A DNA stretch of 64,000 nucleotides from an uncultured Chloroflexia bacterium (GTDB lineage Bacteria > Chloroflexota > Limnocylindria > Limnocylindrales > CSP1-4): positions 1,280,001-1,344,000 of the forward strand of contig CAVVJT010000010.1 in assembly GCA_963748625.1 (NCBI GenBank), given 5' to 3'. Positions within the stretch are counted from its first letter, which is position 1. Each line of letters opens with the position of its first letter. The notes beneath the pieces are model-generated. The model was not told where the DNA came from, did no database searches, and worked only from the letters and a program-made list of their open reading frames with translations. Below, one piece after another: positions 56,334-59,035 of this stretch. The position numbers and the translations under genes were made by a program.

Positions 56334-56840
56334 TCAGGCGCCCAACACGAGCACGGTGGCGACCACGATGAGCGCCAGGAAGATCACGGCCACCAGCACC
56401 CAGGTGAGCCGGAAGAGGCCGCGGCCGCGGTCCACGGGCATCCACGCCCAGGCGGAGCGCCAGATCCGCAGCGTGGCGTCGGCTGTGGTGACCAGGAGCA
56501 GCGGCGCGGCGAGCAGCACGCACAGCTTCACGATCGGGCTGCCGAGGCCTGCGCCCAGCTCCAACGCGGTGATCGCGATGGCGCCCAGCACGAGGGCGGG
56601 AGCCGACAGCAGGACGAAGTGCTTCTGAAGCGGCGTGGGCTTGGTCTCAGGGACGCTTCGAGGAGGCAGGCCGCGAAGGCTCTCGGGTACGGGGGTCGCG
56701 CCGAAGGGTCCCGCCGCCGACGTGGCGCCGGCCGCAGTGGCTGCCCCTCCGGCCGCTCCGCCCACGCCGGTCAGCACAGGTTCGGGGATCGCCTGCCGGT
56801 CCAGCACCGGCATGCCGGGCTCCCAGCGCTCGTCGTCCAT
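56334..56840 (-). CDS. Hypothetical membrane protein
   Basis: Three TM segments; TAGACT-6 nt-ATG start. Confidence 0.7.
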   Translation of the reverse strand: MDDERWEPGMPVLDRQAIPEPVLTGVGGAAGGAATAAGATSAAGPFGATPVPESLRGLPPRSVPETKPTPLQKHFVLLSAPALVLGAIAITALELGAGLGSPIVKLCVLLAAPLLLVTTADATLRIWRSAWAWMPVDRGRGLFRLTWVLVAVIFLALIVVATVLVLGA

Positions 56841-56884
56841 CGGTGGAGTCTATCGGCTCGCCGCCGGTGACCGCCTGTCCTGCA

Positions 56885-56990
56885 CCTCGCCCCGGCGTCA
56901 AGCCTGCGCCTCGCCCGGCCGTCCAGCCTGCGCCTCGCCCGGCCGTCCAGCCTGCGACTCGCCCCGGCCGTCCAGCCTGCGACTCGCCCC
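56885..56990. repeat. 24-25-bp tandem repeat x4
   Basis: CTCGCCC(C)GGCCGTCCAGCCTGCG(C/A). Confidence 0.8.
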
Positions 56991-57095
56991 ACGTGTGGGC
57001 CATTTCCCGAGGTTCTGAGCGTGGTCCGGGCATGGAAGTCGGGGTTTGCCACGCAGACCGTGCGTGAGCGACGCGGATTCGCCCCCCACAAGCTC

Positions 57096-58130
57096 CTATG
57101 GTTTGTCAAGCCGGGGCAGCCACTCGACGGCGCCTTGTTCGAGCAGGCGGAACACGGCCCGCGAGATCCGGTGCTTGAGGCACCGGAGCGCCTCTGCCCA
57201 TGACTTGCCCGCCAGCTGCTTGCGCTCCATATAGGCCTTCGCGGGCGGGTGGTGCAGGGACTGCGAGAGGGCGACCGTGTAGAGCGCCCGGTTGAGCCGG
57301 CGGTTGCCGCCCCGGTTCAGGCGCATCCGCTGGACCTGCCCGGAGCTCGCCGGGATCGGGGCGACGCCCGCCAGCATCGCGAAGGCGTCGGGCGAGCGGA
57401 ACCGGGCGACATCGCCCGTCTCGGCCACCAGGCGGGCCGCGGTGACCGGTCCGACGCCGGGCAGCGCGAGGAGCGGGTGCCCGGCGACCCGCGCGGCGAT
57501 CTGCTGCTCGATCCCGTCCGCCTCGGCGCCCAGCCGGCGTACCTCGGCCAGGAGCCTGCGGGCGAGGTCCGCGCGGGTCCCCGCCATCGGGGCGAGCGCG
57601 GCCTCGATCGCGGCCAGCTGGCGCTGGGTGACGAGGCGCGCAGCGGTGCGGGCGTATCCCGGCAGCAGCACGACCAGGTGGGCGTGGAGCCGGTTGCGGG
57701 CCTGGACCCGTGCGACGACGACCACCTCTCGCGCGTCCGAGAGCAGGCCGAGGTCCTCCGCCAGGCCGCCGAGCCGGACCGGCGGCAGGTCGGGCTCGCG
57801 CTGGGTCACCCGGGCGATCGCGAGGGCATCACCCGGGTCGCTCTTGCCGGCGCGACGAGTGCGCGTCCGTTCCCGGCGGCTCAGGTGCGGCGGGGTCTCC
57901 CGGACGTCCACCCCGGCGGCGGCGAGGGCGCGGGCCGCCGGGGCGCCGTACGAGGACGAGCCCTCCACGCCGACGAGGGTGCCGGGGCCGAGGCCCCCGA
58001 CCCAGGCGACGAGCGCCGCCAGCCCCTCGGGGTCGCAGGCGAACTCCCGCTCGTCGACCGCCGTCCCGACGCCGTCGACCGCGCACGCGGCGAGCGTGCG
58101 CTTGTGCGTGTCGATCCCCACCACTGCCAT
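57096..58130 (-). CDS. IS110-family DEDD recombinase/transposase
   Basis: GIDTHK, VGVEG, KSDPGDA (DEDD); PGVGPVTAARL; PIPASSG (Tnp serine); RGGNRRLN; GGAGG RBS. Confidence 0.95.
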   Translation of the reverse strand: MAVVGIDTHKRTLAACAVDGVGTAVDEREFACDPEGLAALVAWVGGLGPGTLVGVEGSSSYGAPAARALAAAGVDVRETPPHLSRRERTRTRRAGKSDPGDALAIARVTQREPDLPPVRLGGLAEDLGLLSDAREVVVVARVQARNRLHAHLVVLLPGYARTAARLVTQRQLAAIEAALAPMAGTRADLARRLLAEVRRLGAEADGIEQQIAARVAGHPLLALPGVGPVTAARLVAETGDVARFRSPDAFAMLAGVAPIPASSGQVQRMRLNRGGNRRLNRALYTVALSQSLHHPPAKAYMERKQLAGKSWAEALRCLKHRISRAVFRLLEQGAVEWLPRLDKP

Positions 58131-58154
58131 GCCGTGTCCTCCGTGCGTACGATG

Positions 58155-58330
58155 GGCGCGGGCCGGCCGGGCAGCAGTGCGTTGAGGTTGAAGGCCACGC
58201 TCCTATGAGGCCACGGCCGGCCCGCTCGCTCCCGGGATGGGGGCACTTGTGGGGCAGGCCACCTTGCGGGGCACGTGGGGCAGGGCCAACCCATCCCGTT
58301 CGCGAGCACCTTCCCACACCCGGAGAAGGC
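58155..58330 (-). ncRNA. Predicted IS110 bridge RNA
   Basis: 5' hairpin; target loop closed by GGGATGGG/CCCATCCC containing GCCCCACGTGC and CCCCACAAGT; donor loop closed by GGGCCGGCCG/CGGCCGGCCC containing CATAGGAGCGT; RNA ends approximate. Confidence 0.78.
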
Positions 58331-58354
58331 CTGACGAGTTACGCACGTGGGGCG

Positions 58355-58500
58355 CCCGCAGCAAACGGAGGGCCGCCCGCAGCAGACTGGGCCGAGACCG
58401 GGCCGCCGGGCCGCCCGCAGCAGACTGGGCCGTGACCGGGCCGCCCGCGGCAGACGGAGGGCCGCCCGCGGCATACGGGGCCGTGACCGGGCCGCCGTGC
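58355..58500. repeat. Degenerate tandem repeat region (GGGCCGCCCGC(A/G)GCA units)
   Basis: About 5 units interleaved with GGGCCG(T/A)GACC. Confidence 0.7.
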
Positions 58501-58531
58501 CGCCCGCCGACAGGACGACGCACCCGCCGAC

Positions 58532-59035
58532 TCAGCCCGGAAGCGGCTCCGCATTGCTCTTGTCGTCCATCACCGACGCCGTCTGCGCAGCCCGCCAGGC
58601 ATCGAGCCGCGCCGCAAGACCGGCGTCGGACAGCGCCAGGATCGCCGCCGCCAGCAGCGCCGCGTTGTCCGCGTTCCCGATCGCGACCGTCGCAACCGGG
58701 ATCCCGCGCGGCATCTGCACGATCGAGAGCAGCGAGTCCAAGCCGCCCAGGTGCTGGGTCGGGATGGGCACCCCGATCACCGGCAGCGTCGTCTTCGCGG
58801 CCAGCATCCCGGGCAGATGCGCCGCCCCGCCGGCACCCGCGACGATCACCCGGATCCCCCGTTCGCGGGCGGTCTCCGCGTAGCGGAAGAGGTGGTCGGG
58901 CGTCCTGTGTGCCGAGACGACACGCAGCTCGCAGGGAACCCCGAGCTCCTCGAGCACGGCGACCGCCTTCTCGAGCACGGGGAAGTCCGAGCGGCTGCCA
59001 CCCACGATGCCGACCACCGGTCGCGTCCCGTCCAC
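58532..59035 (-). CDS. purE: N5-carboxyaminoimidazole ribonucleotide mutase
   Basis: [32 protein letters not shown]. Confidence 0.96.

Follow-up and report, generated by a model that had tools for sequence, protein, structure and literature searches.

A putative IS621-like bridge RNA with a GT core in a single-copy IS110-family insertion sequence of an uncultured Chloroflexota bacterium

Where are the ends and the crossover core of the IS110-family insertion sequence (IS) on the minus strand of a 64,000-nucleotide stretch of DNA from an uncultured Chloroflexia bacterium (assembly GCA_963748625.1, contig CAVVJT010000010.1, positions 1,280,001 to 1,344,000; hereafter the window), and which DNA would its RNA read? 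An earlier note, made from the letters of the window, had described an intact IS110 element with a two-loop bridge RNA, a GC core and long target guides. We consider it very probable that an intact IS110-family element (IS110 group) is present here as a single copy, with an IS621-like bridge RNA encoded in its left end, that its core is GT, and that its natural target is the palindrome CCCCAC-GT-GGGG. The gene family, the catalytic residues, the RNA fold with its covariation, the covariation of guides and flanks, and the boundaries and core derived from empty sites come from this analysis; the strand-pairing scheme, the role of the handshake guide, the circular intermediate with its junction promoter and the activity of the element are taken over from the IS621 literature. 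Statements on IS621 refer throughout to the accessible parts of Durrant et al. 2024 (PMC11208160) and Hiraizumi et al. 2024 (PMC11208158). G, L and C numbers are our handles for genomes, loci and contigs, G000 being the host genome.

The element, its gene and its crossover core

The IS proper (57090..58344, minus strand, as are all features below) is 1,255 bp long and runs from GCGTAAC... to ...CATAGGAGCTT, as delimited by homology to a related copy in genome G017, by empty sites and by contig breaks. Its recombinase gene (57096..58130), recognized by its open reading frame, Pfam and alignment with IS621, codes for a protein of 344 aa, in which both IS110-family domains are found: the N-terminal DEDD RuvC-like domain (PF01548 DEDD_Tnp_IS110, residues 4-155, 2e-25) and the C-terminal Tnp domain (PF02371 Transposase_20, residues 220-301, 3.1e-25). 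The protein sequence matches the solved bridge recombinases ISCro4 (PDB 9t56, 1.3e-10) and IS621 (PDB 8wt6, 2.5e-10 over residues 4-334), and D7, E56, D98, D101 and S263 align opposite all five catalytic residues of IS621, which are named D11, E60, D102, D105 and S241 in PMC11208158 (the chain numbering in PDB 8wt6 appears to be two higher than in that paper). With its open frame, both domains and five aligned catalytic residues the element was rightly called an intact member of the family, whereas 344 aa, which had been called compact, lies within the usual range (~300-460 aa). The non-coding left end comprises 214 nt (58344-58131), the right end extends only 6 nt past the stop codon. The left donor (LD) GGAGCTT (57090..57096), which is formed by the last 7 bases of the element, overlaps this stop codon (TAG, 57098-57096). 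Terminal inverted repeats were not seen at the element ends on inspection by eye; no repeat-finder was run.

Three independent lines, namely copies of the genomic repeat that was hit, an empty site in a sister genome and covariation at the junctions, place the crossover core at GT (58346-58345 and 57089-57088) and the ends of the element proper at 58344 and 57090. The left copy of the core dinucleotide (58345..58346) and the right copy (57088..57089) frame the element, which sits at one end of a ~104-nt genomic repeat. In the 29 other repeat copies that reach the element end, the C-arm of the palindrome (exact CCCAC in 25) abuts a single dinucleotide (GT in 19, CT in 9, CA in 1), which is followed by the G-run; none of the 29 contains the six extra bases GCTTGT. 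When GCGTAAC...GGAGCTT and one GT are removed from the window, the exact repeat consensus CGCCCCAC-GT-GGGGGGCGAAT is restored. On both strands of the host genome we counted 29 exact occurrences of CCCCACGTGGGG and 27 unoccupied copies of GCCCCACGTGGGG. The empty target proposed in the earlier note, CCCCACGT-GC-TTGTGGGG, has 0 copies, and neither does its central 12-mer (CCCCACGTGCTTGTGGGG) occur. A search for this 18-nt target allowing up to 3 mismatches gave 8 hits, compared with 12 for the reversed control, and none of the hits was in a repeat copy.

The sister copy in G017 is 80% identical to the window at the DNA level; the homology covers the IS proper within 2-4 nt (query 755-2013). It has the same ends, GT-GCGTAAC... 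and ...CATAGGAGCTT-GT, with quite different flanks and guides. The orthologous locus of G007 is unoccupied and reads ...CATGGACTCACG-GT-CAACGGGCGGCC..., to be compared with ...CATGGACTCACA-GT-[element]-GT-CAATGGCGGCC... in G017. This empty site has one GT and no GCTTGT (...GGACTCACG-GT-CAACG...). Likewise, 5/5 paralogues of the G017 left flank run on directly after ...CACAGT, with no insert. A GC core would thus require a private GCTTGT in the hit repeat copy and again at the unrelated G017 site, although the 29 paralogues, the 5/5 paralogues and the G007 site all lack it. The boundaries once given as 58342 and 57094 therefore move to 58344 and 57090, and the predicted circle junction CATAGGA-GC-GTAAC loses its support. 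Searches with two-half patterns detected no exact empty sites in G347, in G062, or in G017/G052/G007; the G007 site was found by flank homology, and two base differences explain why the exact patterns missed it.

For the comparison of junctions, and for all comparisons below, we used homologous elements from the same genus and class, with 18 distinct left ends aligned (alignment A2); the loci of two genomes (G174 and G358) were left out of every alignment and count. At the right junction of the homologues GGAGC is invariant, it is followed by TT, CT or AT as the last bases of the element, and then by a varying dinucleotide (GT, GG, GC or GA). The dinucleotide after GGAGCNN complements the core positions of the guide in 14/16 copies with data (tally by eye), whereas the GC preferred previously (57093-57092) is part of the invariant GGAGC, two bases before the position that covaries. 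Metagenome contigs are in modest agreement with the ends of the GT model: one begins at 57090 and another stops at 58346, positions at which contigs should break if the contexts differ.

The RNA of the left end and what its loops read

Folded as a single sequence, the left end forms a 5' hairpin and two long stems, each enclosing an internal loop (z = -2.0, equalled by 8 of 200 shuffles). RNAalifold recovers the same two modules from the 18 left ends. Covariation was counted on the RNAalifold structure minus three invariant pairs judged spurious. In the 18 homologues 95.2% of the 567 cells are standard pairs, compared with 42-52% when the partners are slid by 1-3 columns, and compensatory changes occur in 16/32 pairs, compared with 1-6 in the slid controls; the observed values were reached by 0/500 column shuffles. 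The energy of the lone sequence is only 2 standard deviations better than that of shuffles; the comparative evidence for the fold is much stronger.

The non-coding RNA would start with a 5' stem-loop, CCUUC...GAAGG (58308..58330), which is kept with paired changes in homologues, e.g. as CCAUC/GAUGG in G364 (alignment A2, by eye, with no formal count). The target-binding module (58224..58307) consists of basal and outer stems, GGC/GCC closers, an internal loop and an inner stem-loop; its helix 1 shows compensatory changes in 7/12 pairs. The inner stem-loop GCC-CC-GCAA-GG-U-GGC (58258..58272) includes the CC-GCAA-GG hairpin (58269-58262) that had been noticed between the two guides, and its first three pairs GCC/GGC (columns 86-88/107-109: GC, CG, CG) are kept in 16-17 of the 18 homologues. 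The donor-binding module (58160..58223) has an outer stem, GGC/GCC closers and a loop, with compensatory changes in 5/14 pairs of helix 3. An invariant GGC/GCC closes each of the two loops. The earlier description of a two-loop RNA upstream of the gene is supported, for the fold by covariation over the 18 homologues and for the reading of the flanks by the guides of the first loop (below), while the second loop would read the element ends.

In the first loop the nine bases 58281-58273 (GCCCCACGU) are identical to the nine bases left of the element (58353-58345). They comprise the left target guide GCCCCAC (58281-58275) and the core-pairing GU (58274-58273), together 58273..58281, and match, 9/9, the core and the left target half (LT) GCCCCAC (58347..58353), which is the C-arm of the split palindrome. 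On the other side of the inner stem-loop (58247..58254) lie the right target guide CCCC (58254-58251), the core-pairing AC (58250-58249) and the handshake guide AA (58248-58247): CCCCAC (58254-58249) complements, 6/6, the GTGGGG right of the element (57089-57084), and AA complements its last bases TT. The polarity is that of the IS621 loops, whose 5' sides pair with the bottom strand and whose 3' sides pair with the top strand (PMC11208160): here the top strand has the same sequence as the 5' side, which would thus pair with the bottom strand, and is complementary to the 3' side.

Counted with a GT core, the target loop is made up of a CCU linker, a left guide of 7+2, the inner stem-loop, a right guide of 4+2 and the handshake AA. 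In size its guides are ordinary and IS621-like. The longer matches noticed before are all present: GCCCCACGTGC occurs at 58281-58271 and at 58353-58343 (11/11), and CCCCACAAGT at 58254-58245 matches 9/10 positions of CCCCACAAGC, the plus strand at 57084-57093, the odd position being a potential G-U wobble. The claim of unusually long target guides does not follow from them; the extra bases are the GC of the conserved inner stem, the handshake AA and one more base that matches the right end. The guides were over-extended because an occupied junction already contains the element's own ends.

It must be noted that the flank matches of a single window are weak by themselves, since shuffled sequences reach them: of 5000 left ends shuffled by mononucleotides, 388 had a 9-nt match to the left flank of 21 nt (the window has 71% G+C), and 4446 had one of 6 nt to the right flank. 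Their weight comes from the comparison across homologues. The left guide matches its own left flank over at least 7 nt in 11/18 copies and in 6/240 non-cognate pairs; the right guide matches its own right flank over at least 6 nt (reverse complement) in 6/15 copies and in 5/195 non-cognate pairs. These counts leave out an internally deleted copy (G062:C4), the truncated L067 copy, L063, L066, L034, L069 and loci with less than 50% identity. Moreover, the two guide bases past the core-pairing positions complement the last two bases of the element in 15/16 distinct elements (AA/TT, AG/CT, AU/AT; the exception is G364; by eye). In IS621 the handshake guide pairs with donor positions 6-7 beside the core (PMC11208158), and by this analogy the AA bases appear to behave as a handshake guide.

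The second loop contains, on its 3' side (58175..58182), the right donor guide ACGC, the core-pairing AC and the handshake positions UG, assigned from complementarity to the left end. ACGC-AC complements GT-GCGT at the left end of the element (58346-58341), 6/6, and ACGCAC is invariant in 18/18 homologues. The ACGC match reported earlier is therefore present (58182-58179), but the right donor guide is not limited to about 4 nt, as ACGCAC pairs six bases. The 5' side holds the left donor guide region CAUAGGAGCGUG (58196..58207). Its first nine nucleotides, CAUAGGAGC, are the right-end bases 57100-57092 (9/9), a match equalled in 12/5000 left-end shuffles; the eleven-letter string noticed in this loop, CATAGGAGCGT at 58207-58197, is likewise there, with its first nine letters identical to 57100-57092. 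Both pairing partners on the donor side are nearly invariant among homologues, leaving no covariation to count.

Two features set this loop apart. The stretch between the donor guides is only ~10-16 nt long and has no conserved inner stem-loop, and the loop base opposite donor position 6 (G or A) never matches the donor base (T, C or A) in the 18 homologues (by eye). It is possible that the 5' side is read contiguously (AUAGGAGC-G-U-G opposite ATAGGAGC-T-T-G), in which case donor position 6 would be mismatched and the second core base would stay unpaired; in IS621 the left donor guide ends at the first core base and the second is likewise unpaired. It is also possible that the donor DNA bulges by two bases. 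Four copies have GT at the left junction but another dinucleotide at the right one: GG in G062a, GG in G449a, GA in G449b and GC in G372. Judged from these sequences, the element dinucleotide would stay on the left and the target dinucleotide on the right, an asymmetry which could arise if a mismatch at the second core base is tolerated and one strand is fixed. A clade-wide variant of the mechanism, characterized by a trimmed donor loop without inner stem-loop, a position 6 that is never paired and systematic junction asymmetry, is a tentative idea that we regard as rather doubtful. If it were true, the outcome would depend on one particular strand, a match at the second core base would be dispensable, and the core rules would be looser.

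Taken together, the 214-nt left end would encode a bridge RNA of IS621-like build, in which a 5' stem-loop is followed by a target-binding and a donor-binding loop. The AA of the target loop would serve as handshake guide for the last two bases of the element, TT, while the donor loop would read the element's own ends, ACGC-AC with GT-GCGT on the left and CAUAGGAGC with the right end. Recombination would take place at the GT core within the palindrome CCCCAC-GT-GGGG, which forms the ends of the ~104-nt hairpin-forming repeat; insertion would be possible in either orientation, and many sites remain unoccupied.

The target repeat, mobility and alternative readings

The stretch 56987..57087, as delimited by BLAST and alignments, comprises the right target half, GGGG at 57087-57084, and the body of the hit repeat, which ends in a second CCCACACGTGGGG. 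In the right flank the repeat starts at 57089; BLAST returned 40 further matches to it in the host genome. Both of its ends carry the palindrome CCC(C)ACGTGGGG and can pair in a predicted DNA hairpin (z = -2.6). Examples of copies are C7:603760-603884, C7:625797-625900, C7:632274-632407 and C2:146730-146842; many of them cluster at 600-660 kb of C7. An Rfam search (E up to 1) with five repeat copies found no family. Tandem arrays flank the repeat and the element at 56879-56990 and 58348-58478, with a period of 24 (4.6 copies) on one side and periods of 21/38 on the other. In related genomes, which lack the whole block, the intergenic region between purE and a membrane-protein gene is short (~22 nt in G006); therefore the repeat, the tandem arrays and the element are additions in this genome.

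As the core of the target is palindromic, the element can enter in either orientation. One metagenome contig shares 58076-58352 (277 nt) with the window without a difference and continues with a repeat copy in the opposite orientation, which is weak evidence given its depth of 2.7 and its 14-nt flank. Similarly weak, owing to low depth and short flanks, is the finding in a metagenome of a ~94-98% relative inserted in this same palindrome but in another context, between GGCGCCCCAC-GT and GT-GGGGGGCGAATC.

The right end contains TTGACA (57104..57109), a candidate -35 box of a putative circle-junction promoter. (C/T)TTGAC is retained in the right ends of the compared homologues in differing reading frames. 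In the window (57090-57112) the hexamer codes for Leu-Asp and is followed by TAG as stop codon; in G017 (L014 1476-1498) the TGA within it is the stop codon, and this difference in frame argues that the hexamer is kept for a role at the DNA level. In the circle junction predicted with a GT core, TTGACA would lie 16 nt from the start of the left end; the junction predicted with a GC core would set it only 12-13 nt from the TAAC motif.

Several observations count against the interpretation given above. On the donor side, CAUAGGAGC stops two bases short of the last base of the element, which continues with TT where the loop has GU. The donor handshake positions UG would fit the left targets of three close relatives (G017, G062 and G347), which end in CA, but do not fit the AC of the present target. 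Among the distant homologues, the left-flank match stops 1-2 nt before the conserved GT in G364, G333, G419, G041a and G082, the right flanks of G004 and G041a do not match their own guides, and no single register fits all, as G364, G333, G419, G041a, G082, G280 and G004 deviate at the left or the right junction. The search of the host genome for other copies, which the earlier note had proposed, found none, so that the element is a single copy despite 27 perfect empty sites. The host genome has, besides it, only a partial IS110-family relative at C7:161188-161682, with an open frame of 241 aa and 49% identity over residues 174-334. The contigs of four metagenome runs contained neither a circle junction nor a contig joining both flanks, parts not covered by them being no evidence. 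A scan of the integrated element for sigma-70-type promoters and terminators found 0, and Rfam (E up to 1) gave no family match on 56500-59000. No sequencing run recorded as RNA contains the stretch.

The misfit of the donor handshake invites a speculation: if the handshake is of importance here as it is in IS621, recombination between this copy and its present target may be inefficient, which would fit its single-copy state.

Some related loci have unusual ends. At L061 (G004:C117, a contig of 1,949 nt) the flank after ...GGAGCTT-GT, GCGTCGGT..., resembles the start of the element's own left end, GCGTACGGT, and misfits its right target guide; a tandem or donor-like (half-match) insertion could have left it behind, or the resemblance is due to chance. 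At L034, from a metagenome-assembled genome of Limnocylindrales, the last ~31 nt of the right end of a related element (GTCAGGGCAGCGGCTTGACAGATAGGAGCAG) are tandemly repeated at least twice (~1912-2070). The two copies of one element in G347 (L068 and L087) have a left arm of 13 nt (CCTGATACGCAGT) and a right arm of 14 nt (CAGGACATCCAGGT) in common, beyond which they diverge; these arms form an imperfect inverted repeat, and the 84%-complete genome yielded no unoccupied copy of the motif.

Can the same insertion point be read in another register? Shifted by two bases, the element would be GTGCGTAAC...GGAGC plus TT, with the target AC kept on the left, the donor TT on the right, and transfer of one strand between unlike cores. 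The empty site would then be the same as in the GT model, the left donor guide UAGGAGC would be perfect (7/7) directly before its dinucleotide, and the unlike dinucleotides at the two junctions of G062a, G449a, G449b and G372 would find a place. The accessible parts of two preprints also report mainly one-strand insertion and excision in the IS110 family (10.1101/2025.10.25.684509; 10.64898/2026.08.31.748434). In this register, however, the four guide segments would specify AC, AA, GU and UG, whereas with a GT core they agree as GU, AC, GU and AC; the right target guide would, unlike in IS621, not pair with the target's own core; and the guide covariation of the dinucleotide after GGAGCNN places the core there. 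We therefore consider the shifted register improbable.

It is also quite improbable that the copy is stranded and no longer mobile, its guide and flank matches only recording the last insertion. The single-copy state in the presence of 27 perfect targets and the misfit between the donor-loop handshake positions and the present target would be accounted for, but the frame is open, the catalytic residues and all RNA stems are intact, and the contig with the opposite orientation described above suggests an identical copy in another context (depth 2.7, 14-nt flank only).

The least tenable alternative to the GT core is the decoding of the earlier note (core GC at 58344-58343 and 57093-57092, element 58342-57094, guides of 9+2 and 8+2 nt): every string match it lists is present, and its junction fits the 5' side of the donor loop 11/11 with neither mismatch nor bulge, the one point which the GT model explains less well, but, apart from the empty sites, the target search at control level and the junction covariation given above, the terminal GC of its left guide belongs to a conserved stem, and in L067, G041a and G082, where this stem starts with another base, the flank match ends at the dinucleotide.

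Comparison with known bridge recombinases

This analysis adds a decodable natural bridge recombinase from a high-G+C uncultured lineage of Chloroflexota. The 13-nt palindrome-centred target (27 free copies in the host), the donor ends, the handshake guide and 16-18 homologues form a ready covariation set. There is also a lesson of method: guides read from one occupied site over-extend, because stem and handshake bases match the post-insertion junction too, and empty sites are therefore needed to fix the core. Leads for the bench are the short donor loop, the lack of pairing at donor position 6 and the junctions with unlike dinucleotides.

ISCro4 (PDB 9t56) belongs to the same recombinase family and is the best PDB match by E-value (1.3e-10), the similarity being distant; CazIS110-1 (10.1101/2025.10.25.684509, accessible part) is of the same family with only distant sequence similarity. 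These two were compared at the level of the protein, not of RNA and target.

IS621 of Escherichia coli allows a closer comparison. Although the similarity of the proteins is remote (E = 2.5e-10), the two recombinases have in common both domains and the D-E-D-D and Ser residues. In both elements the RNA is encoded in the left end and consists of a 5' stem-loop, a target loop and a donor loop; a 3-nt linker precedes a left target guide of 9 nt, a 2-nt handshake guide follows the right guide, a 2-nt core is present at both junctions, and the target is a repeated palindromic genomic sequence. The right target guide of IS621 has 4 nt including the core, whereas here it has 4+2. The core is GT here and CT in IS621, and the invariant base is the first one here (G in 17/17 right junctions), the second one in IS621. 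IS621 has a stem-loop between the donor guides, in contrast to the ~10-16 nt without conserved inner stem-loop found here, and, unlike in IS621, the left donor guide matches donor position 6 in none of the 18 homologues (by eye).

Repeated intergenic targets that can form hairpins are known for IS621 and for ISPpu10 of Pseudomonas putida (10.64898/2026.03.19.712850, accessible part). Every ISPpu10 insertion likewise lies in a copy of one conserved intergenic repeat capable of forming a stem-loop. In that system mutagenesis showed that the stem-loop encoded by the target adds specificity, whereas the hairpin of the repeat described here is a prediction (z = -2.6).

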